The notes: generated by a model not told the origin, from the letters alone. Positions 141 through 41,193 are shown, counted from the first letter of the whole stretch. The stretch: DNA of 51,811 bases, filler included, from Jimgerdemannia flammicorona (GCA_003990765.1; 2 parts of 2 records of this genome joined end to end with filler, not necessarily neighbours in it); one strand, 5' to 3'. Made by a program: numbers and translations.

Positions 141-224
141 AAGACCTTTGAAATAGAAGGCAAACCAGAACAAGACCTTTGAAATAGAAGGCAAACCAGA
201 GAAAGACCTTTGAAACAGAAGGCA
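141..224. repeat. 31-bp tandem repeat, about 2.7 copies (aagacctttgaaatagaaggcaaaccaga..)
   Basis: Units start at 141, 172 and 203, in CpG-depleted sequence. Confidence 0.85.
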
Positions 225-1271
225 CTGTCACTACAACTACTTATAAGTGAGTGCTTCCTCAACTGAAGGCTTCTTGGTACACATTGTGTACTAAGTCCCT
301 AAGTAATAGTCCACTTCCCTAATTATCCAAAGGATAAGAGAGGGGTAGAAGTGAGAGTTATTACACCCTATATATAATACCTATAATATTCTACTCTTCA
401 GAAGTTTTTCTTTTTTTCCTTAATTCTTGGGCAGTTTGTGGTAATTCTCACTTCTTATAATTTAATTCTTGTTGGCTTCATCCTGAAATATCTTCTTAGT
501 AAGATAGATTTATGTTTCTATTAGAACTGATATCTAATTGTTGGTAAATTTCATAGGTAATTCTCTCTGTATCCAAATATTCTTGAATAGCTTTGGTGTC
601 AGATACTTTGAAGACATAAGGAGCAATCTTTTCGCCTTGCTTACATTTCAAAATACTTCTGATTGTGCTGTAATTTTTGGGTTCCATAGTGGATTTAATG
701 TAAATTAGTTTCATATAGTAATTTTTATATAGGGATAGTCCTATGTACACAGTCTCATTACTAGGGGTCTTGCGGATTTTGGAGCGAGCTGGATGCATCC
801 AAAATTTTAGTATACTTATTTGAATATGAGATATAATGATGGAATCCAGGCAAAACCGAACCTTCACTGTGCAGCAAAATATTAATGCCTGATCTACGGG
901 GCTGTAGAAAATTTTGCGCACTGTCCCGTCTTGGGATGCGTAAGAGTGGAAGATTGTGTGCATTTTCTGCATAGATTTTTGGCACTGGCTGGGATGCATC
1001 CAGACGCTCCATTGTCACCGTGAGTACCTCTATTGCTTTTCTTAAACGTAGCGGCCTCTATAAGGAACTGCAGTTTATTACTACCTTTTCACTGCCATCT
1101 ACCGCGATGTGGCAAGTCGCACGAATTGTTTTGCACGTAATCATATATTTTATATTAATTCTCGTAACTCAGCTCGAGTAAGCGACAAAGACAATTTATA
1201 TTTACAGCTTCGCTCCCCGAACCAAACTCGGCAGCAAACCCAACAGAATGACCAATCTCTCTATCTTCCAA

Positions 1272-3848: not shown

Positions 3849-4007
3849 TAAATAAATAAACCACGTACTTTCCTTGAAATTACGCACGTTGCTCAGGAAG
3901 TGACAGGCGCGGTGATGTGTGAGATGACCTATGACGTCACGATTTCACTTTGGTTTTGTTGCAGCACGCCCCATATGATTAGGGCCATCTTGTTGCTACG
4001 ATCGACC

Positions 4008-7000
4008 CCGGCGGTTGGCAGAGAGCGAAAGCAATGGGTTGAGAGATGGCTAACATGGGATGGTCGGGAGGTAGTTGCTTTGGACATTCTGGGGGGGGAC
4101 TTTAACATGGTGCGTGATTGTGTATTGGATAGGTCTGATGGTGGGGCAGGAGTTGCGGTATCCTCTGGACTTTCTCAGTGGCTTCAGGTGGAGCAGGACA
4201 TGGGTTTGGTGGATGGCGTTTGTCAATGACTGGGGGATGAGTTGGGATCTTTCACCCAGTGGCATCCAGTGGGAACAACATTGGTTAGAACGTGAATAGA
4301 TTGAATACTAGTGGCAGAGTGCTGGGACAATGTACTGGACACTGCAGAGATGTGCTGGTGCCCTTGGTCTGATCACTGGGGAGTGGAGGTATGTGGTAGA
4401 TTTCAAGAGGCAAGCAGTAGTGGAGGGCACTGGTGCCTCAATGTAGCCTTACTCAAGAGGAAGAAGGAGAGGGATGATTTTGTGATGGTTATAAGATAGG
4501 AAGTTTTGTAGTGGCAGAATGAAGAGTAGTTGATAGCAGAATGGTGGGGTAAATTCAAACATTTGGCTGGTGCTTACTGGTGGGATGTTGGCGAAGTAGC
4601 TGGGAAGGAGTAGAAGGACAAGGAAAGGAGAGTTGAAAAGGGGCTGAGATGGTGATTGAAGCTTATGGAAAAGGAGAACTTGTCTGAAGAGGTGAACCAC
4701 CAGTTGGCATTAGAGGTGGCAGAACTGCAGGCAGATTTAAGAGTATCTGAGACCAGGGTGGTGGATGGCCTGCTGGCCAGGCTGTGAGCTAGATAGTTGG
4801 AAGAAGGAGAGAGGCCGATGAGATATCTGTCTGATGTTTTGAAGGCTAGGCAAGTGCGACATAGTTAGGTCTCAGTATTGCATGAAGATGGAGTGGAGGT
4901 CTCTGGAATTGCTGACATACTAGGGGAGGTATCTGGTCAATGGCAAGCTCTTTGGTGGGATGGTGGGGAGCATGCTGAGGAGGCTGGGTTTGGGGAGGAT
5001 AATGACAATATGGTGACTAATTGACCAATGACAGTGATACCCAAGATAGGGGAGATAGTCATGAGGGAGGTATCTCTAGATGAAGTATTGGAAGTACTGA
5101 GGAAGACACAGTCTGGTTCATCTCTTGGGGAGGATGGGTTGCTCTGGGAATTCTGAAAGGAGTTCAAGGCCGAGTTTAGTAACTGGTTGGTGGAGATGGC
5201 CAATACTGTTCTGAAGGAGGGTCCTTGAGACTAGTCTCTCTTCTATATAAGGAAAAGGGAGATTGATGAGTGTGGTGCAATTGACAACCTATCATGCTGC
5301 TGAATGTGGATAGAAAGTTGGTGTCAAAGATTCTGGCAGAGAGGATGCAGTAATATGTTGGTGCGCTAGTTGGAGAAGAGCAGCAAGGCTTTGTTAAGGG
5401 AAGGCAGATCAGAGATAGTACTGCCTGGGTGCAGAATGTCTTGGAGGGCTGTAGGAGCTGGCAGATAGATAGCCAGATGGTCTTTCTGGATCAAGAGAAG
5501 GCCTATGACAGAGTGCAGTAGAGCTACCTGGAGGCTATTCTGAGGAGAGCAGAGTTTGGTATAGTAGAGGCAGGGTGTCTGATGGGCTTGGTATGGGGAT
5601 GCTGAGCTGTGGTGATGATGAATGAATGGTGTGGACCAGAGTTTGCCTTGGGGCAAGGGGTGCCACAGGGGGATCCTCTCTCCTCCCTTCTTTATATACT
5701 CTCTCTAGAGTCTTTGTTGGTGTGGCTGAAGGGGCAACTCTCTAGACTGCAGATGGGAGATGTGGTCTGGAAGTTGGGTGCCTTTGCGGATGACATAGTG
5801 GTAGGGTTGGGCAGTCAGGAGGATGTAGTAGTCCTACAAGAAGGGGTGGATCAGTATGAGAGGCTGGTAGAGGCAAAGTTGAACTAGGGCAAGTGTGAGA
5901 CAATAGAACTTGGTGCTGATCTGGGGGGGCATGGACAATTCGGACAATTGGTAGCCACAGGGAGTGCTGTTCGGTATCTGGGTATCTGGTTCTCGGTGTA
6001 TGGAACAGTCCTGCCAAGGGAGTGGTAGTGTAGATTGATTCAGAGACTGGAAGGTGCATTGACGGGTTGGTCAGAAAGAAGCTTCTCTTTGGTTGGCAGG
6101 ATAGTGGTCTTGAATGTATATTGGCTGCCCAAACTGTGGTATCTGGGTTATCATCTGGATTTTCCAGAAGGGTGGATATGGCATGGGAGGCATCCACAAA
6201 TTGGATGAGAGACTTTGGTGATGAGGACTTCTGATGGCAGCCTGGGGCTGGTAGATTTCAGGCGCCGACTGAAGGTACTTTGGGGTTGGTGGGGGCACCA
6301 ACTGATTGAACTTGGTAAGAAAGGTTGGGGCAGGCTGGCCATGGACAATTGGGAGGTCCGGTTCTGCCCTCATGGTGAGGTCTGGAAGGATATATGGGGC
6401 TTGCTTCAGGTTGGGAGTGTGGGTAGGCTGCGTTTCAAGGGGTTCTGGTGGGGTATTGTAGAGGTTTGGCTGGCCATGGAGTTGGTAGACCCAGAGATAG
6501 AGGTGGGGGTGGACCCTGAGCAGAGATGGTGGCAACTGGGTGACCTGTGTGTGGGTGGCCACAGTCTGAAGGAGTACTCCCTGATTGAGGCGATGGAGTG
6601 GAGCAGGTCTGGCCCTCTGGAGAGATGGCCACCAGGTTGGCAGAGAGCTGGTATTGGTGAGGACTTGGAGTAGGTTCAAATTTGGAAGTGGGGAACCTCA
6701 GTCCACAAGATGGTGCCCCTCAAATACTGGGTGGTTTGGTGGCAGTTTCTGAGACATATTGTGATGCTGAGCTATCAGACAGGCTGGATGGAGGTGGATG
6801 GCTGTCGAGACTATGAGTGGTGTAATGAGGTGGATAGAGGGGTTGTTCAGACTCCAGAACATGTTCTGGGGGCATGTCCAGGCATGGAAGGGTTTTGGAG
6901 GAGTCTGGAGGATTACTGGGGCCCAGAGAGACATAGGGCAGAGAATCCAGCCAGTCTGGTGGTCAAGTGCTGGCTGGTAGGAGAAATTGGTAATATGTGG

Positions 7001-7384
7001 GGGAGCTTAGGTCAAATTTTGGGGGTCTGGGTCTTGATAGCAGTGCATTGGTGGTGGATCTTTGAACAAGACCCATGGATAGGGATTGGAGAGATGGTAG
7101 AGTGGTGGAGGTGGCTGATACAGGAGGTGGTTTAGGGGTGGTAGTATCAGGGGAGGCAATGTCAGCCAGGGGCCTTAAAGAAGGTGCAGGACATTGTACT
7201 GCAGAGTCGAGGGTTTCTGGTATTAGATGATAGTGGGGTGAGATGGAAGGAAGGAGTTGGCTGAAGGACTCTACTTCTGTATATGTTATAGGATTAGTAG
7301 TGAATTGTGGCTCTTCATTATTGTATTAGATAGTTGTAATAAAGGAGTCTAAGAGACTATAAAAAAAAAAAAAAAAAAAAAAAA
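4008..7384 (+). mobile_element. 5'-truncated L1/Tx1-type LINE (decayed ORF2: AP endonuclease, RT, C-terminal Cys/His region), poly(A) tail, 16-bp TSD
   Basis: LGGDFN, WSDH, GVPQGDPLS, AFADD, RYLG and TPEHVLGACP motifs with many stops. Ends gagactat(A)n. TSD gttgctacgatcgacc at 3992-4007 and 7385-7400. Confidence 0.95.
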
Positions 7385-9029
7385 GTTGCTACGATCGACC
7401 TTTCCATTTTCGATTCTCAATTTCCACCCTTCGATACTTTTGAGAGCGACTTTCTTCCAGCTGGCTGCTTCAATTACTGTCCCCACTGTGGTTTCGCTCA
7501 TGGCTAGGTTTACGGTAACTAGGCAGTTCTGGCCTTGTCCGTTTCTTCCTCGGATTCGTCCGTCCCAGTAAAGGCCTTCCTTGTCTGGGTTGCCGTGGGC
7601 GAGCGACACCTGTCCCCATGGTCCTCCTGGGGTGGAACCTCGTAGTGCGATGTTCCTTGGTGTACTTGGTAGCGGTGGCGCAGCGCGTTGATAGCTTGCT
7701 GGTAGTTGGGTTTGTCTTGCTGACCCTTGGGCCTTCCTGCGGGTTGTTACCGGCTGAAGGTCCTGCTCTTGCTCCTCCTCTTCAAGCGGCTGGACTTCTA
7801 CTGGGATGTTCCAACATCCTTTGTCCTCGTCGCGTTCCCAATATTCACCAATTGGGTTGAGGGTGAGCTGACTCTCCAATCTTGAGTTGGGAGAGGTCCT
7901 GGTTCGTTGTTCATTTTCTCTGATTTCTCTGATGGCGGCTCGGTCTTCTGCGAAGCTTGCTGGGATTTCGATCCCCTTCCGCATAACCTTTCGTTCGCTG
8001 TATAGGATGTCCCATCCGTTTTCTTGTAGAAACTTGTTCCCTAGTAGGAACGAGGCACTGCCGGTTCCTTTTAGCACTGTCAGGTTTATCTGGTAGCTTT
8101 GTTCTCCTACCTTAAATTTTGCCTGATAGATTCTTCCTAGAACTCCGATCGGTGTTCCTCCGGCTCCTAGGAATCTTCGGTATTCCGGCTTAATCTGGTC
8201 TCTCATTTGTAGTTTCTCCAGTATTTCTTCGCTGATAACGTTTTCATCTGCTGCCGTATCGATTTTTGCTCGGTAGGTTTCCTGGTTGCGTTTGAGGGTC
8301 ACCCATACTTGTCCTATGGGGCCTGTTGCGGTACGCTTTCCTAGGATATTGGGTTCTGGTGCTTCTTCTAGTACGGCGATTTGTTCGTCCGATTGATATT
8401 CCCAATCTTCTTCTTCCGATTCTTCTTCGATGTTGTTAATTTCTTCGCCGAGTCGCTCTTCTTCTCCTTCTGAATCAATTTCGATTTCGTATGTTTTTCT
8501 TCCTACCCGACGAGTTCGTCCGGTTTTGAAAAATCTCCTTTTCTTTCCGAAGGTTACTCTTCGGCTCCCTTTCCGGTGAAATGGCTTATCTTCTTCCGGA
8601 TTGTCCACATCCATTGGTCTGCGTCCTCCGCGATCTCTTCTGAATGCTTCTAGGGGCATTTCTTCCCTGCATTCTTCTGCTGCTGGTCCGCTTCTTGGGT
8701 ACCGCGTTCTTGACCAGTAGTTTTTGTTGTAGTTTGTCTTGATCGTGCCTTCTTGGACGGCTGCGACAAACTTTCCTTTGAAGATGTTGAGGCATACATC
8801 TAGTACCTGTGCCGCCGTTGTTGCTGGTGCCGTAGTTAGCATCTGATTCTGTCGGTAATGGTATGGTAACCAGCCTGGCATTTTTCCTAGGATGAATTTC
8901 TCCTGAGTCGTGAACGTATCGTCCATCAGGCTTGCAATCCTCATTCGCAGTTCGAGTTGCGTGTTGTAATGCTGCATCTCGTGTATGCTCTGGGCATGCG
9001 ATCTGGGGAAATTGTATAGCTCTTCCCTT

Positions 9030-10223
9030 TTTTTTTTTTTTTTTTTTTTTAATGGACTCGATGTCTCGCGGATTTTTATTGGAAGGGAATCTAGACTATA
9101 TAGGTCAAAACCCTCTCTCACCACCCATCAAGCACTGCCCCCCCATTAACCTAGGCTAGCTATTGTCCAGCAGCTTGACCATGCTAGGCGCAGTAGGGCC
9201 TATAGTGGCCTGTACCTCATTTTGCACACCATGCTCTCTCTATCACCAGGGGAAACTCAGCCATATACCAATGACTGAAAGCACACACCCAAGAACCCAA
9301 CATATGTACAAGGTCACACTCGAGCTGAATAGAATAGCCCCTGCCACCCCAAAGAGAATGACAGGCAGAGAAAACCCCTCATCAAAGTACAACACAGTGG
9401 GTAGGGCCTGGTTCTCCCAGTTGAGATGAGTAAAGAACTTACATGTGAGGCAGAAGAAGACTTCTAATACTCCACTACTCAAGTCTGCAGGCCTAGATCA
9501 CATTGCCATATCAGCTCCTGGTTCCAGTTGAGTGCAGCCAAGATGTCTGAAATGAGTAGCCTTGGCCCCCCAATCCCCCCTGATGACTGGGACCCAATCT
9601 GCTAAATTATCAAAAGAAGCTGAGAGTGATACCTATTACCTAACCGCACTACACCAATCAAAAGGTCTCACCAAAGTAGCACCTGCCCCAGCCCCAATGA
9701 CTGCCCCCAGCCTGGCACCCTACTAGTTCACCATTATCACCCTTCCTCCTATCTATAATGGCCATCTCCCCTCCCATTCTGACAACACCTGAAAAGCAGT
9801 CATCTATATCAGAACTGCACTTGCTGGGAAGCTTGCCAAAGTCAGAAGGCCCCACTACAGATACCAAGAACCTGCAGGTAACCTATACTGAGCACTTGAT
9901 GCCCAAGGTCAGCTGACTCCCTATGTAGTCTGAGATACACCAAGATAGCACCTTGTTGGTAACAACAAAAGGAAGAAGGCACTGCACCAAAATGGATGCA
10001 CTCCAGATGCAGCTGAAGGCACCAGAAACTGTGAAAAAGTGGAGAAGATACTAATCTGACACTGATAAAGGGGCAACTCATCACCATTGCCTCCCTCCCA
10101 CTGCCCTGCAACAGGTACAGCAAACCAACCTGAGGTAGAGGGGGTAATAATTGTGGAAAGTGGACTCAGAAGGTTGCCTACCAAACCATTGTGACCAGTA
10201 AGGTAGCAGAGAAAGGGGCACTG
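9030..10223 (-). mobile_element. 5'-truncated non-LTR retrotransposon 3' fragment (second family), poly(A) tail, 13-bp TSD
   Basis: Poly(T) at 9028-9050 on the + strand. TSD tagctcttccctt at 9017-9029 and 10224-10236. CpG-depleted body. The 3' end (gagtccatt-An) differs from the gagactat-An family. Confidence 0.88.
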
Positions 10224-12990
10224 TAGCTCTTCCCTTATGATTGTGATTTGTTCTGCTCCAAAGAACTTCTCGTAGATCAGAAGTCTTAGGCCTTTCCTTG
10301 TTCCGACTGCGTCCGTGTAGGTCATCCATGATAGTGGCTTGTCGTGATCTGCCATATTTTTCGATAGGATGTCGTTCACCAACCATTCTTGCGCAAGTTC
10401 TTGAAATCTTGAACCTATGGCTGCTACGAGGCGGTAGCTGTAGCTTTTGGCTGGGTCGTCTGGTGATGATGCGTCTGCCCAGTATCCTGACAGGTATCCT
10501 GCGGATACATATGCCAAGTCGACTTGTCCCACAAATGCTGGGACTTCCATTGGGTTTCCGCTGAATGGTTTGATGTTATCGAATATTTTTATCGCTCCTG
10601 GGAGCGTCATGTTGACTGGTCCGGTTGACTTGACTGGTTCTTGGCCTCCTGGTGGATTGTGCGGTGGATGCTCCGGGTTTGTCTCGTGGTCATCCTGGTT
10701 CTCGAAGTATGCGAGGACTGCTCCTCCGATTGTCTTTTGATCTGCGTCTGAGAGGTCTCCCCAACTACTTTTAATGACATAGGTCATTATTGCTGAGTAG
10801 TAGAATATTACGAAACTTAGTGCGTCATGCTTGTAATCTTGGTGGAATATCAGGCTCGGGTTGTAGACCGGGGTTGGTCTTGATTTGCCTGTTCCTCTGG
10901 ATCCCGCACGCGATATCATATAGACTCCATCCGTATTCTTGAGCCCAATCGCTTCCTGCCAATCCTCCGGTTTTCCAATTTCCTGGAAAAGGGGGAATTC
11001 CTCCAACTCCGTGTTGTCCTTGGTATGCCATCATGGTTCTAAGGATGATGTCCAGAATCCTCTTGTAGATGTCATCTGTTGGGTAGTTAGTTCCTCCGTT
11101 TGGTTCGGTTTTGGAGTCTGATAGTACCCATGCATCTCCTGCAAAGTGGAATGCCGTTGCTTCGTCTGGCATATCTACTAGTTCCCAGGCCCATCCTAGG
11201 CGTCTCTTCTTGGCCTTGGTGATCGTGCCCTGGTATTCCTGTTATTTGGCGGCCTTGGTGGTTCTCCGCCTGCTCCAGCCGTGGGTCCTCTTGGCTGTGG
11301 TGGAGTTGCTCTGGTTAGCCGCGATAGGATCCTCTGGGTTTCACTTTGCGTATCTCTTGTCCCTTCTACTCTTCTAAGTAGTTCCTCGTTTTCGCGGCGT
11401 GCTCGTTCCCGACTTTCTTGTAGCTGTCGGTGGGCACTGTCATCCAATCTTTGTCGCACTCTTCCTGTTGGCAACGCGTTTCTTGCTGTTTCTTCCGGTA
11501 TCGGTGCGAAAGGATTTGGCTGGGTCCTCGACCTTTCTGGTGCCCTTGGTGTTGCGATTTCTTCGTCGTTTGTGGTCCACGGGCTTGGTTGGAAGCGAAG
11601 TTCCCTTACTTTCTGCTTTGCTTCTGTTGCGGCCGTGATTCGGGTCGCTGTTTGGGCAATAACCCCTGGGTTTGCTGCTCTTCTTTGGCCCAATCTTGCC
11701 GTGGCTGCGATGATATCGTCTGTGGTTGTTGGCCTTGTTTGTGCGATATCTTCCAATCTCCTCCTTTCTTCTTGAACATCTGGTGTTCTTGGGGTTGACA
11801 GGATGTTAATGGCCGTTCTTGTCGTCATGTGGCCTGGTGGCCTTGGTCCCATCGGTGCTGGTTGATTGAAGTAGCTTTCTCCTACTTCTTCTGCGCCGTG
11901 CCAGTTTCCGTCGTTTTCCTTTTTCAACCATGCCGTCAATCTCATTGTCTGATTGATTCTTTCCTCCGGCCAGTTGTGTTTCTCCAATAGGTACTTGAAG
12001 AATTTTTGTTGTACGGATAGAATTGATCTTCCTCCGTGTTCGTCGATACTCAACAGGACTTGTAGTTGAACGTCCTTGAAGTGACCTCCGAGTTGGTTGG
12101 CTACGAAGATTGCGCTTTCGTACCTTACTGGGGGTCGCTTTCTGATGATTATCTTCACCTTCTGGTATCCGTCTTCTAGGTAATCTGAGACGTTTCTTGG
12201 GATCTCCCTGAACTTCGGGTTTCTTCCGTCCGCTGTGTTCTGGAAGGATTTTCTCCAAAATGAGGTCCATTTTGAGATTCCTTCGACGTGTGTTGTGTCG
12301 ATGGTTCCTTCACTTGGGATTGTGTTGGCTGTCTCTCCGTCCGACTGGTGGCCTTCTTCAGGTTCTCCGTGGATGGTTTCTTCCATTTCGTCGATCCTTG
12401 TCCTGAGCTCTTGCTGCTCGATTGGGGCAGCTGGGTTCTGATCTCCTTGGATGCCTGAGAACCATTGCTCTGTGACCGTTGACGTAGGCCTTGGCTGTCT
12501 TTGTAGCGGCGCGCTTTCTTCTGATCTGCGGCTTGCTCGGCTCGCTCTGCGGCTTGCTACTTGTTCCTCGAGTTCAGCAATTCGTGCCTGTTGTCTGACG
12601 ATTTGCTCTTGGAGTCTTTTTTCCGACTCTGTTTCGGCTTCAATGCTATTGCTTCTGAAGCGGAATAGCGTTGTTCCGTAGGGGGCTGACGTTGCGCGTT
12701 CAGTTTCATTATGAACGTTGATGTTGTTGTTGGCTGCCATTTGTCTTGATCCTCCGGACTGATCCAAATCTCAGTATCTAGCGGCTAATATTGGACGGTC
12801 GGTTGGTTACGAATGTCGTTAAGGGCTTATACTTCCGCTGAGAGTGGCTTCTTCGTCTCGAGGCTAAGCTTTAAGATCACCGCAAAAAAAGTGAGTGCGA
12901 AGCTGCTGCTTTTTGAGAGTGATAGCGTAAAAGCTATTGTGGGTTTATTGGGGTTTTTTTGTGGTGAGGAATTCGAGTTCCAATACACCT

Positions 12991-13000
12991 GTATTTATAC
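12991..13000 (-). promoter_or_regulatory. Candidate TATA box upstream of the Gag-like ORF
   Basis: Minus strand reads gTATAAATAc, about 250 bp upstream of ATG 12740 in the intergenic spacer. Confidence 0.35.
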
Positions 13001-13138
13001 AGTTTTTAGAGCTTTCGCTTCTGCTAGTCCTATACTATTCGTAGCTCTCTCGGTGGTATCGCGGTGTCTTCTCTTTTCCCTTTTGGGAGTTATTTAGCAG
13101 TCCAGACTAGCAGTGCTAGTCTTCGACAGATCCTTTCC

Positions 13139-14708
13139 TTATAAGGATTCTCCGCTGTCCCACACGCTACTTCCCCATTCGTTTGCTTCATCCGCGAAGT
13201 CTGCCGGTGTTGCACCATTGATTATTTCCTGCAGTTCTTCTGCTGATAATTCCGTGCTTGTTCCTTCGCTTGATGCGGTCGTCAGTAGCCATAGCTCTTC
13301 TTGCCTTCTGATCAGCTTGTTGAGCGTCTTCATTTCGCTTACCTTGACCCGGGTGATCATGCTTGGGGTCAGGCCTTTGACTCTTCCATAGAACTCCTCC
13401 GTGGGTTCGTGAAAGAGCATTCGACAGCTCCTTATCTTGGTTTTTATGTAGTCCAGCTCAGTTTTTCCTAATGTTTTCCCATTAGCTGTCTGGACTTCTG
13501 CCTTGATGTTCTTCGTAATGGTCTTCATTGCCTGCTTTCTGGCTTCTTCGATTGGGAACCCTCTTTGCACCAGGGCTTGGCTTCTGTCTTCCCAGACCTT
13601 GCTAATTTCTAGGTAGCACTTGATTGCTGATACGTAGAATTGGTCCGCTCTTTTTTCGATTACCAGCGCCTTTGCCAGTAGGTGGGATTCCTTGAAGCCG
13701 AACTCCAGGTTTGCGACGTCTTCATCCGTCGGTTCATACCATCCGGCCAGGTGCCAGGCTCTGATTTCCTTGAATCTTTTCAAGACTCTTTTCGCCGCGG
13801 TTGATAGTCCTTCTTCGCTTGCTTCCGCGAGGACTTGCTGTACCGTTGGCAGTTCCGCCGTTATTGTTGGCCCTTGATTCATTCTTGGGGCTGCGATTCT
13901 TGCTCGCAGTTCTTCCTCGTTTTCCGCGAATCTTTCTTCCCTTGATGTCCGGGTGATTGCGGCTTCTTGAACTTCACTTCTCAGTTCTTCCTGGTCAGCG
14001 GCTGGTGTTTCTGGAACGATTTCTCCTTCGTCCTCTGTGAGTATTTGTTCTTCTCCAACCGGTTGTGCTAACCTTGAGATTCTTCTGGCTCGAGTCCGCC
14101 TAGCCCCTGTTGCTGTTCTGAACTCCCTGAGTTCTTGAACTTGTTGATGCAGTTGCTCCGTGAGTTCTGCATCTTCCTGGGCTTGCTGTACCATTTCCTG
14201 ATATCGGTCTTCGATTCCCATAGCGTGGTGCTCGAGCTTCTTTATCCTATCCTCCATATATGCCAGTGTTGCTTCTTTCGGGATTTCGATAATCCTTTCC
14301 CTGCAGTACAGGCATATTCCTCCGATGTTTTCCTCTACGTCCTTGATGGTTCCGTCTTCGAGGGTGGTTTCGCCGACCTTAATTCTCTTGTGGTTGGCGT
14401 ACACCAATCCCACGCATTTGAGGTGGATCGTCCGGTCGCATGCAGCGGGCTTGGTTCTCCCCGAATTCTTCTAAGCATCCGATGCATGCTGGTTCTTCCT
14501 CCCTTGGTCGTTTCAGAGATATTACCATCTCTACATATCCTTCTGCTTCTTCTCTGAAGTAGAGGGCCTTGTCGTGTCGGACTAGGATTGCTTCGTTTGG
14601 CTGAAGCTGCTCCATAGCTTCTCTGGCTCCGAACATCATTCTTTTTGGTAGAATGTCCGGCGGGATCCTCTGTCCTTCTTCTAGGATTGGTGCTCCTCCG
14701 GCTACCAT
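13139..14708 (-). pseudogene. Intronless PHD-like zinc finger + coiled-coil + helical C-terminal domain protein, one frameshift, 5' end possibly truncated
   Basis: ORF 14379..14708 gives CIGC...ARC. The frame of ORF 13139..14413, extended upstream, gives CDRTIHLKCV...ICLYC. Together this is C4HC3 spacing, followed by a heptad-like E/Q/L-rich stretch. Confidence 0.65.
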
Positions 14709-14715
14709 TGTCCAC

Positions 14716-17700
14716 TATGTCATCTGCAAAGGCTCCCACCTTCCACACCACACCATAGATTGAGAGCCCTGGATCCTATCCATCAAGGGTTCCAATGAAA
14801 GGGCATAGAGAATAGAAGACAGTGGATCCCCTTGAGGAACTCCCCTCCCCAAGGGGAATACCAAGCTCTGGTGACTATTACACATCAGTGCTGCCCTACT
14901 TCTCTTCAAAAGATTCAACATAGAGGCTTGGAATTGTAGTGGAACATCAATTCTGTCCAGTACTTTGCCCAGCCACATCTGCTGAATGTGGTCATAGGCC
15001 TTCTCCTGGTCCAAGAAGACCAATCTCCTATCCAACTCACTAGCCTGAGCCCCTTTAATGACTCCATAGACCCAAGCCATCTCATCTCTAATAAGTCTGC
15101 CTCCAACAAAGCCCTGCTGCTCCTCTTTTTTTTTTTTTTTTTTTTTTATAGTCTCCCCACTACTCCTCACCTAGTACCTATTGAGCAACCTTCTATAATC
15201 TAGCCATGATCATCTTAGTAACCATCTTCTTGTCTATATTTAGAAGCATAATCAGTCTCTAATTTTTCTAGTCCTCTCTTCTACTCTTGTTCTTATATAA
15301 CAGGGCCACCAGCCCTAGATTCTATCCTCTGACCTACTTACTATTCAGAAATACAAAGTCACAAAAGGTTGCCATCTCTCCTAATACTCCAGAGACCCTT
15401 GTCATCTTCTTTCAAAAGTCCCAAGGTAATCCATCCTCTCCTGATGCTGTCCCTAGCTTAGTTGCCACAAGGACTCTCTGGATCTCCTCCTCTTGAACTA
15501 ATAGGATCAAATCTCCCAGGTCCTCTATCTGTAGTAGCTCTCAATCCTCTAGAGTATCTCCAATTACTTCAACACTAGCTCCCCCTTTCTCCTCACTCTA
15601 CAGATCTCTCTATCTCTCCTTCAGCAATCTCAATATCTGTTGAGTACTATATACTAGTTCACTCTCTACATCAAAGACTCTATTTCAACAATATCACACC
15701 CTTCTTGTCTGGAAAAGTCTCAACAAATACTTAGTAGGCCTCTCACTCTCCTCAAGCCCCTGCCACCTCAGTCTAGCTGCTATACTTTTCATATATATCT
15801 CCTCCTCCTCTCTCAGTATCTGTTACAACTCCATTACTTCAAACTTAGCTTACATCAATCTCTAATCATTCATCTCTCCAGAATTTAACAAATCTGCCCA
15901 TTCTATCTACAGTCTGACCAACCTATTAGAAGCCCACTTCACCCTTCTCCTTCTCTGCCTCCCAGCCTCTCTATTAGCTCTACTCCAGTAATCTCTCATA
16001 GTCTCTTTCAGCTTCATCTACTAGATATCTACAGGTGAGCCCTCATATATCCAACCAGCAATCTTCACCTATATATCCTCCATCCAAGGGTCCCATAGCC
16101 TCTTCTCAGCCAGCAGGGAGAAGTTAAGGTATTAATATCTGGGTCCATCTCCACTCCCCCCAAACTGCCTCTGCCCTAATAGTCTCTAGTGATCAGATCA
16201 TGGATACCACTCAATCTCTAATGACTTTCAAACATCCATACTTCAGTATTTGGCTGTTAGTATCTAGTTAATTCTTGTATCTAGACCATTTATCTAATAT
16301 GTATAGATCCTCTTTTCTCCCCATAGTATCCTGCTCATATCTCTTAAGGAGCTAAGGTTTTTCACCTCTTTCTATAAGTCCAGGCCACCACTCCTTCCAC
16401 TGGTACTCCTTCCACCATTAGTTTGATCTATCTGAAGATTCTGTACTATATTAAAGTCACTCTCCAGAATATTCACTCCATTCTCCAAGAGGGCACCCTC
16501 CTTCAATAGACTCTTGATCCATGTAATTCTCTTACCCTGAGCCATAGGGCAATAGCAGGATCTTATCTTCACTGACTCTCAACCAGGGCAAATCCATTTC
16601 CCCTATACTAAATGATCTCTCCAGTTCCTGATACCCCCTAACTCTCCTCTACTACTCTATATCAGAATAGCCACTTTGTCCTCTCAAACAGCAGTGCCCC
16701 CCCATTCTCTAGTCTATTCCTCTTGATCTAGATCATTCTCACAATATACATCCTATAACAGAAAGAGATCAGCCTCTAATCTCTTAAGCTAAGTGAAAAT
16801 GTTTTTCATCTCCCAGAGCTCTGTAGTCCATTCATATTCAGCAAAAAAATATTAGTTATAGTGTTTATTAGAAATAATGTTTAAATAAAAGAACTCTTTA
16901 CAACTTAGCCCTCATCTCTCTCCTTACCAGATCTATTCTCTGTTCAGCAGAATTTTCCACATTCAGCATCTTATCTGTCTCCAGTCTAGCTAGAAGATTA
17001 GCTAGTTCTATATCTTTCTTCTCTTCCATTATATCTCTATACTCCTGACATACACTCTGCTAGAGTTGAAGGTTTCTTCTCTGCTTCTATCAAAAGGCAG
17101 TCTATTTTCCTACAACTGCTGCCAATTTCTTCTCTCTTGCCTCATTAATCTCATATCCCTCCTTCTTTATGAAGATGGCCAACACCTCCACCTTGAGTAT
17201 CTCTACTACTCCATCTCTATATAGTACCCTTTTCCAATGCTTCTCACTAATAACTCTCAAGTCCACATCCTCCAATTCCTCAGCTGTCAAGTTATGTATT
17301 ATATAGCATATCTACCACAAGTCTCCAATATCTTTCCCCTCAGGAGTGTTCAGCCATCTCATACCCAGCATTGATAAATTAATTCCAGTACTAGCAGATT
17401 CTTTCTACTTCTCATCTGAGACATCCACTAGCTCATCCTCCTTAGGTTCTGTGACCTGACCCCCCATCTCAGCCTTGAGAACTCCAAATTAGACTCTATA
17501 TATATCTCTCATCTCTACATCCTCTCCAACTATTTACCTTCTAGAGCTAGTTAGTGCTCTATCATTTTTATCATTCTCAAAGACCTCTAGTATACTATCA
17601 TCATACAGTATCTGATCTCTAGTTACCCTACTTACTTGATTATCTGCCACTTTTATCTCTACTCTACTACTGGCCCAAGTACTCACCTTTGTCCTCTCAG

Positions 17701-19010
17701 GACCTTCAGCTCTCCTCAACTCCTTGGCAGCATTCTCCTTCATACTAGCCAGCAGCTCTCTCTGTCTTTTCCTCCCTTGGGCTCATTCCCACTGCTTCTT
17801 ATTAATATAAATATGCTTCTCTTCTATTACCTCTAGATATATTGAATCTATAAAGAACTTCTAAGCCTTTGCTCTATACTCTACTGCTCCACTGAACTCC
17901 TCCAGTGTCTCCAGTAGATCCTCTTCCTCCTCCTCACTTCTCTTCACTCTCAAGATCTTATAGATAAAGGCTCTTCATCAATACTAATGGCCAGTCCCTA
18001 GTCTTCTCAGTCACCTCTCTCCCAGTTAGTCTAATTCTCACATCTACATTATTTATTCTGATAGTGGTCTCTTCCTATATCTGAAATTTAATATCCACTA
18101 TATTACTATACTCAGCCATCACCTCCTCTATTCTGTACCTTGTCTCAACCATCATCACTATTGGTACTCCTTTTATCAGGAACTATACTACTCTCAGATC
18201 TCATCTTAAGCATCTTGCCATAGATACTACTATCTCTCTAACTACCAGTCTAGTTTTCAGCATCTCCTCTATTGGCCCAGCCTCCTCAAAGTCCACCTCA
18301 ACTCCCTCCAGGCCTTTTAGAAACTTCACTGAAGCCATACTAGCCATTTTCTTTGAGATGAGCCCTAGGATTATTCTTGTTATTATAGCTAAGCTCTGGA
18401 AGCACAAAGTGACTGCAAACTCTAAAATCAACTTCTTGAGTAATAGTGCTACCACTAGCCCTATCACACCATCAGTCAGGTCCCTCATCCTCTTTGGTCC
18501 CATCAGCCCAGCCTCACCATCAACTATCACATGTGGATTTTTTTTCAGATTTCTAGTCATATTACCATCAGCAGTTCTGCTCTTTCTCTCAGCTATACCT
18601 ACACTGGCCCTCTCTCCCCCAGTCTGAGGCACTGCCCCTCTATCTGTCATCTCTCTCTGTTTCTCTTTCCTCCCTGTCTGACTACTATAAGATCTAACAG
18701 ATCACCCACCAGTCTTTACCAAATCTGCAAAACTTCTTCCCCTCTACCTTTTAGCTTCAGCTCCAGTGTAGCCACTATTGCCAGACCTACTCTGCCCACT
18801 CGGGCCACCAATAGACCCCATCTCCAGTCCATATCCTCTTCTGACATATTGCTAGTCAAAGGCCCCAGTCTATCTGACCTAGTATATGTGTCAGCTTGCT
18901 TATTGGTTGCTATACTCTTAGTATCTTTCTCTAATAAACACTTTGAAAGTATATTGTAAAAGTATGTGTAATATGAATAGTAGCTGAGAAAGGTGTGACA
19001 ATATGCACAT
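14716..19010 (-). mobile_element. Decayed L1/Tx1-type LINE: 5'UTR, ORF1, ORF2 EN and RT, cut off just after AFADDIV
   Basis: DQEKAYD, GVPQGDPLS, VGAFADD and ILESDFN motifs. ORF1 and 5'UTR are homologous to the plus-strand copy at 19725-25860. No 3' half or tail. Confidence 0.9.
15126..15154 (-). mobile_element. Minimal LINE insertion: last 7-8 nt plus poly(A)22, with diverged 14-bp TSD
   Basis: T22-atagtct(c) is the reverse complement of the gagactat(A)n end at 7353-7384. Flanks are ccctgctgctcctc (15112-15125) and ccccactactcctc (15155-15168). Confidence 0.8.
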
Positions 19011-19230
19011 AAGGTCCCTCTGCCTTTTATAGACACTCTATCTAGTCTCTCCATCAGCTATTATATCTCTTTTTTTTTTTTCTAGATCCACTATTACACT
19101 ACCATCAGCCCACAGTACTTTCAGCACCTACACTCACTCCTCCAGACTGAGGACCTCTCTCTCTTCCTATACTAGTCTTGTCCTTTCTCTCAGCCATACC
19201 AGCTATAGCTTCAACTGACTATCCACTCTC
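19011..19230 (-). mobile_element. Third fragment of the same LINE ORF1
   Basis: The reverse complement aligns by eye to 20020-20245 of the plus-strand LINE. Confidence 0.7.
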
Positions 19231-19320
19231 TTTTTTTTTTTTTTATAGTCTCTTAGACTCCTTTATTACCTAATCTAATATAATAACAAATCCCATGTTG
19301 TGGCTACTACAAAAATAATA
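19231..19320 (-). mobile_element. LINE 3' end with poly(A), gagactat family
   Basis: T14-atagtctcttagactcctttattac matches the reverse complement of 7336-7384. The distal boundary is approximate. Confidence 0.85.
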
Positions 19321-19724: not shown

Positions 19725-22700
19725 TTTATCATCAGTATCTTTCTCCAGTATAATTCACATTACACCAACTTCAAGCAATGGTTTTTGATACAACTTAGAG
19801 AAAAGGTACTATAAAAATATCATCAAGTAAGAGTTCTGACAGATATGCTGGATTGGGTGGACCTGAGGCATTTGGCTGGCAGAATGTGGGAAGAGGTTAT
19901 AGACTAGGGATGGGGGCCTTTGGAGGGTCAAAGGGTGGTAATAGCTCTGGAGCAGGACAGGTGTCAGGTGGAAATAGGGGATAGCCTGGCCCCCCAAGCT
20001 TTGTGGACAAGGTAAAGAAGAGTGAATGGTCAGCAGAAGCTAGGGCTGGTACTGCTGAGGGAAAGGGCAAGGTGAGCTTTGAGAGAGAGAGAGGTATTCA
20101 GACTAGAGTTGTGAGCATAGGGGCTGAAGGTGCTGTGGCTGGGGAAGAGACTGCTGATGGGAGTATGATGAAGAATCAGGAAAAAAAGAAGATGTAACAG
20201 CTGATGATAGAGTGGGGTAGGGGTTCCTGAAGCAGAAGGAGGACCTGGCTGATGATGTGATGGGGCTGATAGTGGTGCTGTTACTCAAGAAGTTGATCTT
20301 GGAGTTTGTAGTGACTCTGTACTTCTAGGGCTTAGTGGTGATAGCAAGAATAGTCCTGAGAATTATCTCAAAGCAGGTGGCTGAGGCTGCCTCAGTGAAG
20401 TTCCTGAAGGGCCTGGAGGGGATTGAGGTGAGCTTTGAAGAGGTAGGTCCACTGGATGAAGTATTGAAGACTGAAGTGGAAGTAGGTAAGATGATGGTCT
20501 CCATGGTACAGTGTTTGAGGTGGGACCCCAGAGTGGTCCAGTTGCTAGTAAAGGGGGTATCTACAGTGATGACAGCAGAGACTAGAAGGAGGGTAGAAGA
20601 GGTGATGGCAGAGTATGGAGATGTGGTCAATATTGGGTTCCAGATATAGAAGGGAACTACTTTCAGGACTGGAGATATTGATGTCAGGATTAGGCTAGCT
20701 GAGAGGGAGACCACAGGGAAGATGAGTGACTGGCTATCAGTGATGATGTGAAGAGCCTTCATTTGTAAGATATCAAGGGTAAAAGGGAGTGAGAAGGAGG
20801 AGGAGGATCTGTTGAAAGCTCTAGAGGAGATGAGTGGCACTGTGGAGTAGAGAATAAAGGCTTGGAGGATGTATGTAGAGTCAATGCATTTGGAGATTGT
20901 AGAGGAAAGACATATCCACACTGACAAGAGATAGTGGGAGAGGGCCCAGGGGCACAAGAGATAGTAAGAGCTGTTGGCTAGTATGAAAGAAGGAGCAAAG
21001 AAGAAGGTGGATGAGACTGAGGAGTCTGGGGGCACTGAAGCTAGTGTCTGGGCTAGTAAAGAAGGAGGGGATGTAGAGGAGGGCCTAGAGGGGGCTGGGA
21101 AGATGCCAAGCAAGAACCCCTATATAGATGGTATATTTGAAGTCTGGGAGGAGGATTTGGATGATACTCCCTCTCTTGTCAGGAGGGGCCCAGCTGTAAA
21201 GAGAAGGGCAGCAGAAGATGTGCTGATGCAGGGTGCCCAGTGAGTACACTTTGGAGTCCCTGATGTGATAAAAGGGGGACAGGTGGTGGTAGTTGGTGAG
21301 GACAAGCTGGTGGATATCCCAGAGAAAGAGTAGGATAAGTCTGCAAGTACTGAGGCTAATACCACAATACTGAATGCTGGAAGACCAGTGATGCCAGAAG
21401 GGAAAGAGGTGGGGAACCTACTGTGGATACACCAAATAATAAATGACTTAGTGGTTGAGGAGCTGAGAGAAGTAGACCTGAGTGTAATGAGCAAGAAGTA
21501 TTGAGTACAGATTCTATATAGTGATGAAGTAGTAGTAGCTCTGAAGGGGGAGGTGCTTGTAATTCTTCTGGAGGAAGAGGGGTATGAGGTTGACAAGGAA
21601 AGGGAGGCAGAGCTGACTGTTGTTGCCAGTGAGCAGGCTGCTTACTGTTGGGTGGAGCATCATAGTCTGAAACTCTGGCAGGAGATCTGCCTGGAATATC
21701 ATAAGAAATTTGAGGAGAAGGAGAATAGGGCAATAGCTGAACTCCTAGTGGGATTAGAGGTAAAGGAGACTGAAGAGGAGGAATTGACTGCAGAATATAT
21801 CTTAGACTTGATATAGGAGGAGATAAATGTGGATTTGTAGAGGATGTACTAGATCTTACTTCTAAATATTATTCTCAATAAACAGTACAACTAACATTTT
21901 TTCTCTGAATATGAATGGATTAAGAGGCTCTGGGCAGTGAAAGAACATTTTTACTTAGCTTAAGAGATTAGAGGCTAATCTCTTTTTGCTGCAGGATATA
22001 TATTATGAGGATGAGGAGGATCAAATAGAGTAGACTAGAGAATGGGGAAGGGCTAGTGCTCCCAAATAAGTTGAATCAATTTGAATTGAATCAAATTAAG
22101 AGTCTGATTCGAACCCTAATTTTCAAAATGCAATAACTCAGTGTAAACTCATCCAAATCTAACGTACCTTAGCTTGTTAGAATCACATTAATACGGTGAA
22201 TCTAACAAGCTAAAATATGTTAAATTTGGATGAGTTTTCGTCGAGTTATTATATTTTGAAAATTAAGGTTCAAATCAAACTTCAAATTGAATTGGACCTT
22301 TGATTCGATTTGAATCAAATCAAATTGGACCCTTGATTCAATTGAATTGAATCAAGTTTGGGCCAAATTCGATTCAATTCAATTCATTGGGAGCACTAGG
22401 AGGGGCTACAGCTTAGATTGATAAGGTAGTGATTTTGGTACAAGATGGTAAAGGAGATTTAGGTGGAATCAGGAACTGGGAAGACCATTTGGTATGGGGG
22501 GAATGACATCAATCTGGGTGGGAGTCAGTGAAAGTTAGCTCTTATTACTGCCTGGCAACTAGGGGTGAGCAGATTGCATAGATTAAGGGTTTGTTAGAAG
22601 AAGGTATACTCTTGAAGGAAGGGATAGATATTCTGGGAGGGGACTTTAATATGGTGTGGAATTCTCAATTAGATTGAACTGATGGAGGGAGGAATGTGGG

Positions 22701-25700
22701 TGAGAGGAGTGGTGGCCTAGATGCATGAGAGGAGGTAGAGACTCTCAGCTCCTTAGGAGATATGGGCAGAGCATAGTGGGAAGAGAAGAAGATCTATATA
22801 TACTGAGTAAATAGACTAGGTACAAGGATTGACTGGATCCTAATGTCCAAGTGCTGGGGCCTGGATATTTGGAAGTCACTGGAGGTAGAGTGGTGCCCAT
22901 GGTCTGATCACTGGAGTCTATTAGTGCAGGGGCAGTTTGGGGGGAGTGGAGATAGGCCTGGACATTGGTGCCTTAACTCCTCTTTTCTAGTAGAGAAGGT
23001 TTTGTAGGACCCTTGGGTAGAGGACATTCAGGTGAAGATTGCTGGCTGGACATACACAGGTTTGCCAGTGGGTGTCCAATGGTTAAAGTTGAAAGAGACT
23101 GTATAGATTTACTAGAGAGAGGCTGATAGAGAGGCAGGGAAGCAGAGAAGGAAAAGAGTGTGGTGTGCTTTCAACCAGTTGGTTAGATTGTAAATAGAAT
23201 AGGCAGATTTGTTAAATTCTGGCAAGATCAATGATTGGAGATTAGTATGTATAAAATTGGAGATGATGGAGGTACAACAGATGTTATGAGAAGAGGAGAA
23301 GATGCATATAAAAGGAATGGCAGTTAGGCTGAGGTGGCAGAGACTTGAGGAGGGGGAGTGGCCTACTAGGTACTTGTCATGGCTTCTCCAGGCCAAGAGG
23401 GTGCAGCATCAATGAGATGGGGTCCTAGATACTGATGGAGAAATGGTGTATGGTATACAACAGATCTTGGGAGTGCTGAAAGAGAGGTGGAGGGGGTTGT
23501 GGAGTAGAGAGGAAGGGGGTGTAGATGAGGAGACAATTGGAGATATACTTGAGAATTGGAAACCACTACAAGTAGTAGGCCTGGGTAATTTGATCCTTTC
23601 AGTCTAAGAGGAAGAGATTCAGAGAGTCCTTGCTGCAACTAAGCTTGGGATGGTACCGGGAGAGAATGGGTTATCTTGGAACTTCTGAAAGAAGATGGCA
23701 AAGGTTCCTGAAGTTTTAGGAGAGATGGCAGCTCTCTGTGACCATGTTCTTCTTAACAGTGAGTGGGTTGGTGAACAGGATTTGGGGTTGGTGGTCTTGT
23801 TATATAAAGACAAGGAGAGGAGGAAAGACTGGAAGAATTAGAGACTGATTATGCTTCTGGATATAGACAAAAAGATAGTGACCAAGGTGATTGTAGTAAG
23901 GCTACAGAAGGTTGCCCAACAGGTGCTGGGTGAGGAGCAGCAGATCTTTGTTAGAGACTGGCTTATTCAAGATAGAACAGCCTGGGTCCATGGTATCATT
24001 GAAAGAGCATAGGCTTGTGGATTGGATGGCAGACTGGTCTTTTTGGACCAAAAGAAGGTCTATGATCACATTTGGCAGATTTTGCTGGGCAGGGTGCTGG
24101 ATAGAATTAGTGTACTGCACATTTTTAGACTTCTATATTGAGTCTATTGGAGGGCAGTAGGGTAGTACTGATATGTAATAGATACTGAGGTCTGGCATTT
24201 CCCTTATAGAGAGGAGTTCCTCAGGAAGATCCACTGTCTTCTATTCTTTATACTCTTTTATTAAAACCTTTAATGGATAGAATAAGACAGAAGGTGGTAG
24301 GGCTCTCTATGTATAGTGTAGTGTAGAAGGTGGGGGCCTTTGCAGATGATATGGTAGTTGGTCTTGACTCAGTGATAGATGTTGAGATACTTCAAGAGAC
24401 AGTAGAATAGTATGAGGTATATTCTGAGGCAAAACTCAACTGGTATAAGTATGAGACAATGGTGCTAGGGAATGGACTCATAGGTGGGGACATTATTGGA
24501 ACAATTGTCTCTATGGGAGAGGCAGTGAGATATTTGGATATCTTCCTTTCTGTATATAGTTCTGTCCTACTACAGGTGTGGTGGGAAAGAAGGGTGGCCA
24601 TTTGGGGGGAGGCACTTAGAGGTTGGAGAGGTCACTATATCTCCCTAGCTGGCCAGATATTGATTCTGAATATCTACTGATTCCCTAAGCTATAGTATGT
24701 TGTTTATTATTTAGATTTCCCAGCTTGGGTGGTAAAGAGACTGATGAAGCTGGCTAGAGATTGGATTTGAGCTGGGAGGTGGGCCCAGGTTGGTTGGGAC
24801 ACTCTGGTAATACCAGTAGTTCAGAGAGGACTTGGTCTAGTGGACCTTTCTAAGAGGCTATACTGCCTGCAAGTATGGTGGTTGAAAAGAGCTGTTGATT
24901 TAGAGGGAAGAGGCTGAGTACTACTGATGTAGAAGGTGTGGGAGATAAGATTCTCCCCACAGAGATCCTTGGGAGATTTGCTGTCTCTGGTGGGTCTGGA
25001 TGGAAGCCACTAGCTATAGTATAAGGGCTTCTGGTGGGGAGTAGTGGATGGGACACACCAAATAGGACTGCACTGGCAAAGCAATGAGGGAGAGATACTG
25101 TAGAGACCAGCTATGTGACAGTAGGACAGACTACTTCTGGAGGATATTCTGCTTGCTGAGTTTGATATTGGTGATGGGGTAGAGTGTCAGCAGAGACTTG
25201 GTCAGGATCTTTGGCCAAGTGGTTGGTAGGCAGTTAGGATTGGAGAGGAGTGAGACTGGGCAAGAGTCTGGTCATAGAGTGCTGAGGTGCAGAGGTGACT
25301 TCCTCCCAAGTTCTGGGTGGTCTGGTGGCAGATGCTGTAGAGAAATGTCATGTTGAATTTTCATGCTAGATATTTGGTGAATGGTGGTCATTATAACTGT
25401 GAGGAGTACTATAATATTGGACAAGTTGGGAGTTATGTACAGATGTCAGAACATTGGCTGAGAGAGTGTGAGGTTCTGAGGGACTTTTGAATTGCAGTAG
25501 GAGACTGGCTAGGAGTGGAAAGGAGGCCAGATGGAGAGAGAGATTGCTGGAAGGATCTGAAGACTAGATTAGTAGGTGGTGTGGACAATGAGTGGCTCAC
25601 TATAGGGTGGGTTTTAGCAGTATGGGTAGGGCTGACTGGACATTAGCTCTTTGTTTTTGAGAAGAGGTGACAGATAGGTATACAAGAGAAATTGTCAAGA

Positions 25701-25860
25701 TGGGAGAGATTGTTGGGAGATTTGCTGACTGGGTGGTAGATTGGTTGGGGTCTCCAGAGTGAGCAATGTTGTCATCTAGTAGAAGGGATATGTGAACAGA
25801 GTAGTGGACAGATGGCAATAGTGAATGATAAAGTAGTCTTTTATTACAAGATGGGGGGAG
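19725..25860 (+). mobile_element. Near full-length decayed L1/Tx1-type LINE (ORF1 about 19885-21850, ORF2 about 21880-25860), cut by the contig end
   Basis: NMNGL, LGGDFN, WSDH, GVPQEDPLS, AFADD and RYLD motifs with dense stops. Nearly CpG-free. Confidence 0.92.
22054..22398. mobile_element. hAT-like MITE (345 bp) inside LINE ORF2
   Basis: TIRs tagtgctcccaa / ttgggagcacta. 8-bp TSD ggaagggc (22046-22053) / ggaggggc (22399-22406). Subterminal ttgaat/attcaa motifs. Confidence 0.9.
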
Positions 25861-25960
25861 NNNNNNNNNNNNNNNNNNNNNNNNNNNNNNNNNNNNNNNN
25901 NNNNTTAATTAATTAANNNNNNNNNNNNNNNNNNNNNNNNNNNNNNNNNNNNNNNNNNNN
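25861..25960. other. Artificial contig linker (N44-TTAATTAATTAA-N44)
   Basis: A palindromic 12-mer with stops in all six frames between equal N runs, 100 bp in total. Confidence 0.95.

Positions 25961-35082: not shown

Positions 35083-35119
<37 letters not shown>

Positions 35120-41160: not shown

Positions 41161-41193
<33 letters not shown>

Follow-up and report, generated by a model that had tools for sequence, protein, structure and literature searches.

C-to-T decay confined to LINE copies in a nested element locus of Jimgerdemannia flammicorona

Known systems and the Jimgerdemannia locus

C-to-T decay of repeated DNA is known from methylated transposable elements (TEs), in which 5-methylcytosine (5mC) deaminates, and from repeat-induced point mutation (RIP) and RIP-like processes of fungi, and we describe here a locus that resembles each of these in part. 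It lies in a 51,811-nucleotide stretch of DNA from Jimgerdemannia flammicorona (GCA_003990765.1, two parts of the genome joined with filler; the window hereafter), where a nest of elements spans approximately positions 3977 to 25860. Two long interspersed nuclear elements (LINE1 and LINE2) interrupt an open reading frame (ORF) within an aspartic protease cassette, referred to below as the host, and two older elements (LINE m and LINE p) lie to its right, the latter with a nested insert resembling a miniature inverted-repeat transposable element (MITE). The LINEs carry a heavy C-to-T load, on both strands, that the host lacks. J. flammicorona belongs to the Endogonales within the Mucoromycotina, and RIP-type mutational defence is regarded as a trait of Dikarya, mainly of Ascomycota. 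For Endogonales, our search of the literature, which did not cover paper supplements, brought up no account of CpG loss or of decay resembling RIP.

The decay of methylated TEs, as in vertebrate L1 and Alu and in Rhizophagus irregularis and Phycomyces, is similar in that a CpG deficit is mirrored by TpG and CpA, symmetrically on the two strands, and in that it is confined to the element, leaves the flanks normal and progresses with age. The decay seen here is far more complete, with 2 CpGs kept of about 390 expected in 10 kb of older LINE (14715-25860), and it is apparently much faster than background, since the host is untouched, and includes C>T change outside CpG. Within the window it is also LINE-specific, neither the MITE nor the protease cassette having been stripped of CpG. 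The CpG-biased, RIP-like hypermutation described for Basidiomycota (PMC4014442) likewise acts on repeats and creates TGA and TAG stops, but by that account genes of Rhizoctonia solani are hit too, whereas the fungus here belongs to a phylum outside Dikarya and its genes have a CpG observed/expected ratio (o/e) of 1.0. RIP in Pezizomycotina shares the killing of repeats by C>T and G>A, the stops at Trp and Gln codons and the sparing of single-copy DNA, but here the main target is CpG rather than CpA, LINE1 shows neither AT enrichment nor a rise in TpA, and there is no leakage. The mitotic, Dim2-dependent C>T mutation of Zymoseptoria tritici, which is described as limited to methylated repeats and as a more than tenfold rise, is a precedent for a fast, element-limited process, although more than 98% of the C>T change reported there is at CpA with CpG spared (PMC8016269), whereas CpG is dominant here.

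The window provides a clean internal clock, with a stop-free host ORF, perfect duplications and nested inserts in a known order. If the load was acquired in place, then an early-diverging, mycorrhizal fungus with a genome that is 77% repeats has an element-specific mutator; if the copies instead took it over from dead templates, then this genome must often mobilise decayed LINE RNAs in trans, which bears on how the genome became so rich in repeats. One review puts the genome at about 240 Mb with repeats above 77% (PMC10386755).

A C-to-T load specific to the LINEs

LINE1 and LINE2 both bear the marks of target-primed insertion, with poly(A), 5' truncation and exact target-site duplications (TSDs) of 16 bp and 13 bp, and in silico excision of the two elements, each with one duplication copy, restores, on the minus strand, a stop-free ORF of 833 codons (11030 to 3932). 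An earlier note on this DNA had proposed that the LINEs arrived after the ORF, and the duplications and the restored frame bear this out. LINE1 ends in a 26-nt poly(A) directly before the second duplication copy, and the 23-nt poly(A) of LINE2, read as a T run on the plus strand, likewise adjoins its duplication. LINE1 starts within the endonuclease domain, with a GDFN endonuclease motif at about 4090 in translation, and continues into the reverse transcriptase (RT), with an RVT_1 match at 5354-5884. A tblastn match of P0001 (residues 132-818) covers 4086-6166, passing from frame 3 (4086-5222) to frame 2 (5213-6166), and the domain content of homologues is PF03372 and PF00078 (plus PF13966).

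The contrast in CpG content is large. LINE1 has 25 CpGs where 167.4 are expected (o/e 0.15) and LINE2 has 6 where 68.0 are expected (0.09), as against 88/97.7 (0.90) and 228/272.9 (0.84) in the two parts of the host, and the difference between LINE1 and host is highly significant (Fisher test, p = 8e-57). The borders are sharp: over the 100 bp of host that adjoin each of the four LINE1 and LINE2 junctions, CpG o/e is 0.79-1.12, with no dip and no spreading. Both CpGs of the LINE1 duplication are kept in each copy, and the chance of keeping all four at the LINE1 survival of 0.15 is 0.15^4 = 5e-4. Within LINE1 the CpG deficit of 142 is mirrored by excesses of 72 TpG and 54 CpA, and GC content stays at 50.2%, compared to 49.4% in the host.

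Stops were counted in LINE1 in frames set by the homologues (4008-5216, then 5213-7132, with one frameshift between), and there are 23 among 1043 codons (12 TGA, 10 TAG and 1 TAA) in addition to the frameshift. The earlier note was thus right that the LINE bodies are CpG-poor and stop-rich and the host is not, although its view that the stops replace Trp and Gln codons holds for LINE1 only as to Trp. The assignable LINE1 stops are at conserved Trp positions (4794, 5282, 6026 and perhaps 5519) and at conserved Arg positions encoded by CGA (4293 and 4785), and none among them is clearly derived from Gln; Gln codons do account for about 8 of 32 private stops in the older pair of LINEs. The same note pointed to CpA as a target alongside CpG; a major role for CpA is not supported in LINE1, where TpA o/e is 0.74, the same as in genes, and loss is overwhelmingly at CpG.

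We estimate the LINE1 load at 85% of CpG and about 11% of other G/C. Applied to the 833-codon host ORF this load predicts 14.1 stops, and none is observed (P = 7.5e-7), so the load is LINE-specific and not the product of regional ageing. To that extent the idea of hypermutation acting on LINEs while the cassette escapes is sustained in part, although not as RIP in the strict sense. We have also considered that everything here is old and that the LINEs aged normally, the cassette having been kept free of stops and rich in CpG by selection or by gene conversion from intact paralogues. A relative of the host protein that is 77% identical does exist, and part of the cassette is represented in the contigs of a sequencing run described below, but the ORF now lies in three pieces and is nevertheless in frame and stop-free over both junctions, both duplications are non-coding and perfect, and conversion tracts ending exactly at two LINE borders would be unlikely. 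We consider this account highly unlikely.

The spectrum of change was read at codons conserved among 30 homologues. At 14 columns where at least 60% of these have Arg, LINE1 has six AGR codons, one CGA, four products of CpG decay (TGA, TGC, CAA and CAG) and three others, which answers the concern that the LINE consensus might itself have been CpG-poor. Among other columns conserved to the same degree, Gly is kept at 12 of 20, Pro at 4 of 13, Asp at 15 of 16 and Glu at 6 of 6, and the changed columns include six G>A products at Gly and four C>T products at Pro. A threshold of at least 80% leaves 86 columns, of which LINE1 retains 64 unaltered; at nine it has a lone GC>AT transition and a tenth is ambiguous, while the remainder comprise one AT>GC transition, six transversions and five double changes, and several of these transversions and double changes are common to LINE m and LINE p and are therefore family-level. 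Read in this way, the alignment shows that the functional ancestor of LINE1 did not avoid CpG but used CGN codons, and that LINE1 then took on a near-pure GC>AT load on both strands.

The similar gains of TpG and CpA, and the decay of Arg codons in both directions (to TGA or TGC, and to CAA or CAG), are the signature of a process acting on double-stranded DNA. This bears on the possibility that a cytidine deaminase edited LINE RNA and/or first-strand cDNA during retrotransposition, so that each copy arrived hypermutated. An exact border and a load limited to the insert would be expected of such editing, as would the state of the LINE1 5' end, which is made last and is least mutated: the first 300 bp (4008-4307) keep 8 of 15.8 expected CpGs (o/e 0.51), compared to 17 of 151.6 in the remainder (p = 5e-4). 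In LINE2, however, the gradient is opposite, with 4 of 12.3 expected CpGs in the tail-side 200 bp and 2 of 55.7 elsewhere (p = 7e-3), three of the six being within 20 nt of the tail, and with no CpG across 572 bp at the 5' end. The sense strand shows both C>T and G>A, and a strand-symmetric loss of about 85% at CpG and about 11% elsewhere is the pattern left on methylated double-stranded DNA, whereas a deaminase of single strands would leave another. Editing is largely ruled out by this preference for CpG and by the symmetry of the strands, and we regard it as very improbable. The first 73 codons of LINE1 are also stop-free and this end adjoins a highly expressed spliced gene; CpG retention at this end of LINE1 could mean that a chromatin mark tapers at the border or that the template was chimeric.

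We note that G greatly exceeds C on the sense strand of all four LINE bodies (4008-7358, 9052-10223, 14715-19230 and 19900-25860), with a GC skew of about 0.45 (G/C counts of 1222/459 in LINE1 and 1347/531 in LINE m), and that G frequency in LINE1 is equal over codon positions (0.39, 0.35 and 0.37). Strand-specific editing was considered as the source of this skew and rejected, as the per-target rates of G>A and C>T between LINE m and LINE p are equal (0.20 and 0.23) and the skew pre-exists. It is already present in the least-mutated 300 bp of LINE1 (C 42, G 113), and for these two reasons it looks native to the LINE families.

Stages of decay and the timing of the load

The older LINEs extend the comparison. 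LINE m meets the cassette at 14714/14715, where the cassette interrupts it inside the RT, at the FADD motif, and leaves it with no 3' end; LINE m is therefore not a younger insert. Its RVT_1 match is at 14718-15170. LINE m and LINE p were compared over 2979 well-aligned columns, in which they differ by 646 transitions and 192 transversions. Double CA/TG differences between the two, which bear on how much CpG their common ancestor had, are in weak excess (23 compared to 14.5 expected). With polarity assumed, the per-copy loss is 0.46-0.50 at CpG, 0.24-0.27 at CpA/TpG, 0.20 at CpC and 0.12-0.16 at CpT. Within 498 aligned codons there are 21 stops in LINE m only, 11 in LINE p only and four that are shared, such that 32 of 36 are private; the partner codon at these 32 is TGG in 17 cases and CAR in about eight. 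Parallel hits at Trp codons alone would give 5.0-8.7 shared stops, and as fewer are seen the common ancestor need not have carried any stop. The prospect that the same stops would be common to copies is thus not borne out for this pair, and because the stops are private we conclude that LINE m and LINE p decayed in place from an intact ancestor.

Ordered from the host through LINE1, LINE2 and LINE p (3' part) to LINE m, CpG o/e is 0.84, 0.15, 0.09, 0.01 and 0.01, and TpA o/e rises from 0.69 through 0.74, 0.91 and 0.92 to 1.04. The rise in TpA argues for a two-step path, from CG to TG or CA and then to TA, of which the elements in the window would represent successive stages.

These values also bear on whether the process is RIP in the strict sense, namely a homology-triggered, sexual-cycle-linked deaminase or methylase acting on long repeats, from which the cassette would be exempt as single-copy DNA and the MITE as too short. 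In favour of RIP, the load is selective for repeats and made up solely of transitions, on both strands, with stops placed at Trp and Gln codons; there is a modest preference for CpA outside CpG (0.24-0.27 compared to 0.12-0.20), TGG became TAG 12 times and TGA four times between LINE m and LINE p (p = 0.08), and the cassette family is rare, with one relative at E <= 1e-10 among the 1.84 billion representatives searched. Thresholds commonly applied to RIP are a TpA/ApT above 0.89 and a (CpA+TpG)/(ApC+GpT) below 1.03. LINE1 windows give 0.54-0.96 for the former and 1.37-1.68 for the latter, which falls short of RIP, and although the older LINEs do reach a TpA/ApT of 1.27 their composite index is never below 1.07. 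LINE1 remains at about 50% GC with no leakage into its flanks, and runs tests on private transitions, in which polarity is assumed, give no clear strand-coordinated tracts (z = -2.7 in LINE m and +0.7 in LINE p). The strict analogy is not supported for the dated inserts, which lack the dinucleotide signature and show neither AT enrichment nor leakage. In addition, RID is listed as confined to Ascomycota (PMC13297926), RIP signatures were not detected in Mucoromycotina according to Venice et al. 2020 as cited in PMC8647823, and the genome is described as above 77% repeats (PMC10386755), with LINEs still inserting. True RIP is improbable here.

Our preferred reading, to which we give slightly less than an even chance, is that the LINE copies were hit in place by an element-confined C-to-T decay, most likely through methylation and deamination. 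Such decay would act on double-stranded genomic DNA and on both strands about equally, chiefly and very predominantly at CpG, less strongly at CpA/TpG and most slowly at other Cs. The most likely cause would be dense cytosine methylation aimed at the LINEs, mainly at CG with some at non-CG positions, followed by deamination; small RNAs or heterochromatin could provide the targeting signal, and the protease cassette and the nested MITE would keep their CpGs by being unmarked. In R. irregularis, a member of the Glomeromycotina, CG methylation is described as confined to TEs and as dropping in the sequence directly beside them (PMC8647823), and Phycomyces is listed as having both DNMT1 and Dim-2 (PMC7862722). 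We infer that the LINE1 and LINE2 load was acquired after insertion, that methylation was its cause, and that the LINEs were targeted in some such mode. The survival of CpGs in LINE1 is border-dependent, which a uniformly decayed source does not predict.

Several considerations weigh against this reading. In the two dated inserts mutations private to a copy are not separable from those it inherited, and a metagenome scan for LINE1 relatives returned 13 loci at 32-41% identity, too distant for a family consensus. We estimate that, for the host ORF to have stayed stop-free, decay at methylated CpG would need a rate at least about 60 times that of background G/C transitions, and the mammalian ratio, at roughly 10-20-fold, is below this. 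The loss of about 11% of non-CpG G/C at conserved LINE1 codons requires the further assumption that non-CG sites were targeted as well. The load stops exactly at the insert border, with the duplication CpGs 5 and 9 bp from LINE1 kept and no dip in the flanks, and mutation before insertion accounts for this more simply. The three CpGs at the extreme 3' end of LINE2 could equally reflect selection for recognition by reverse transcriptase, and since LINE insertion is clearly ongoing, active masters must escape the process. A more specific form of in-place decay, possible but rather doubtful, is a fast genome defence of Endogonales that recognises new LINE copies and converts C to T in them, CpG first and CpA next, with adjacent unique DNA essentially unchanged. 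It would reach a RIP-like outcome by another route, CpG-centred, element-aimed, without leakage and possibly guided by small RNA.

Mutation before insertion is central to a different account, in which the RNAs of old resident copies served as trans templates for LINE1 and LINE2, those copies having shed their CpGs and gained stops at their own methylated loci, and nothing unusual took place after LINE1 and LINE2 inserted. An exact border, kept duplication CpGs and an untouched host then need no special rate. At the 86 columns of the stricter threshold LINE1 has a load of about 0.11 per column, nearly as heavy as the 0.13 and 0.18 of the old copies, and the CpGs of LINE2 survive only towards the 3' end, which a trans-mobilised RNA would need. 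Further evidence comes from X1, a small sequencing run (word share 0.14) labelled 'RNA?'. It looks like RNA, since seven of the 15 joints listed are CT..AC introns of 66-106 nt that its contigs pass over in the gene at 1445-3163. X1 is also rich in decayed sequences resembling LINE2, as many contigs 80-95% similar to LINE2 at depths of 180 to 3,300, compared to about 250 for the neighbouring gene, and these relatives themselves lack CpGs at 9282/3, 9286/7 and 9317/8.

Other aspects of the same comparison argue against decayed templates. X1 differs from the window at 402 positions over 20 kb, with symmetric totals (163 with AT in the window and GC in the read, 181 with GC in the window and AT in the read, and 58 transversions), and among the 40 differences listed 21 are within LINE2. 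At 17 of these 21 the window has T or A where all covering X1 contigs have C or G (binomial p = 0.003); three are in the reverse direction, all within CA/TG pairs, and therefore represent independent decay of one CpG, and one is a transversion. At all 20 listed transition sites the base in the window is absent from every X1 contig. X1 contains next to nothing of the LINE1 family (depth 0-3.2 over LINE1), a blank that we treat as uninformative, as we do the zero depth over 10673-12673. LINEs show cis-preference, which also tells against mobilisation of dead copies, as does the only testable pair, LINE m and LINE p, which traces to an ancestor without an excess of shared stops. The first 300 bp of LINE1, being markedly less decayed, are not expected of a uniformly old source. 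We view descent from dead templates as doubtful, although far from negligible.

The cassette, nested insertions and surroundings

The coordinates of the features discussed are collected in Table 1.

Table 1. Features of the nest and its surroundings in the window
Feature	Position	Strand	Remarks
LINE1 TSD, left copy	3992..4007		GTTGCTACGATCGACC; 2 CpGs kept
LINE1, L1/Tad-like LINE, 5'-truncated, APE-type endonuclease and reverse transcriptase	4008..7384	+	RVT_1, tblastn, GDFN motif
LINE1 TSD, right copy	7385..7400		16/16 identity with left copy
Host ORF, C-terminal part, retroviral-type aspartic protease	7401..9029	-	PF13975; CpG o/e 0.90
LINE2 TSD, left copy	9017..9029		TAGCTCTTCCCTT
LINE2, 3' 1.2 kb of a LINE family other than that of LINE1	9030..10223	-	poly(A), TSD
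LINE2 TSD, right copy	10224..10236		13/13 identity with left copy
Host cassette, upstream part, with N-terminal 264 codons of the 833-codon ORF	10237..14714	-	CpG o/e 0.84
Intact ORF, 524 aa	12770-11199	-	
Intact ORF, 443 aa	14470-13142	-	
LINE m, older LINE without 3' end, cut within FADD motif of RT	14715..19230 (to ~19300)	-	CpG 1/158.4 expected
LINE p, older LINE, head-to-head with LINE m and about 72% identical to it	19900..25860	+	CpG 1/231 outside MITE
Foldback/MITE-like insert in LINE p, 341 bp	22060..22400		CpG 7/8.1 expected
Scaffold gap of N with linker	25862-25960		TTAATTAATTAA
ORF, 198 aa	41690-42286		100% identity with a hypothetical protein of J. flammicorona

The host ORF matches the protease domains PF13975 (E = 1e-8) and PF13650 (E = 1e-6) and has a DTAAD motif, and its 77%-identical relative (P0055) is uninterrupted across the LINE1 site. 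The cassette had been called a Gag cassette. The retroviral-type aspartic protease is real, but it is the only Pfam match; Retrotrans_gag, zinc-knuckle, RT and integrase gave no match in the cassette at E <= 5, and self-BLAST of the window found no long direct repeats (long terminal repeats, LTRs) around it. With no capsid, RT, integrase or LTR found by these comparisons, the name Gag is therefore not established. X1 contigs are near-identical to the cassette over 7752-9016, and one contig skips 97 nt (8179-8275) bounded by GT..AG when read on the plus strand, opposite to the protease ORF. An antisense transcript that crosses the cassette and is spliced is thereby suggested, at a depth of about 6 and from that one contig. 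Both ends of the cassette are abrupt, the right at 14711-14715, where it abuts the LINE cut mid-RT, and the left at about 3977-3981, where an X1 contig agrees with the window up to 3976 and then diverges into a loose end that has no match elsewhere in the window. P0055 extends about 100 aa past the end of the ORF in the window. The 6.1-kb cassette may be a fragment set down by rearrangement rather than by transposition.

Smaller insertions are nested in the older LINEs. The MITE has terminal inverted repeats of approximately CTAGTGCTCCCAA and TTGGGAGCACTAG and a 98-nt internal hairpin, and LINE m has no MITE at the corresponding place, the insert having entered LINE p after the two split. Two tiny insertions are tails of the LINE1 family, one of 43 nt at 15126-15168 (21 nt of 3' end and 22 A) and one at 19231-19300 (about 55-70 nt with 16 T on the plus strand), and an extra run of 13 T is at 19070-19082. 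A sensitive BLAST comparison found LINE2 and positions 1-700 each without relation to the other LINEs of the window.

Past the scaffold gap, 19 A (ending at 25979) directly adjoin a GTGAGT splice donor on the minus strand, which comes after YIEDWWLSPEL, read in translation as a phospholipase-D-like motif. A LINE tail may lie within that intron, adjacency across the gap not being assured. The genes to the right of the nest (26000-42000) have 918 CpGs where 913.7 are expected (o/e 1.00). Two further stretches are free of CpG (o/e 0.00), at 1-500, which is matched by diverged X1 contigs at high depth, and at 42501-43000, which has a GC content of 28%.

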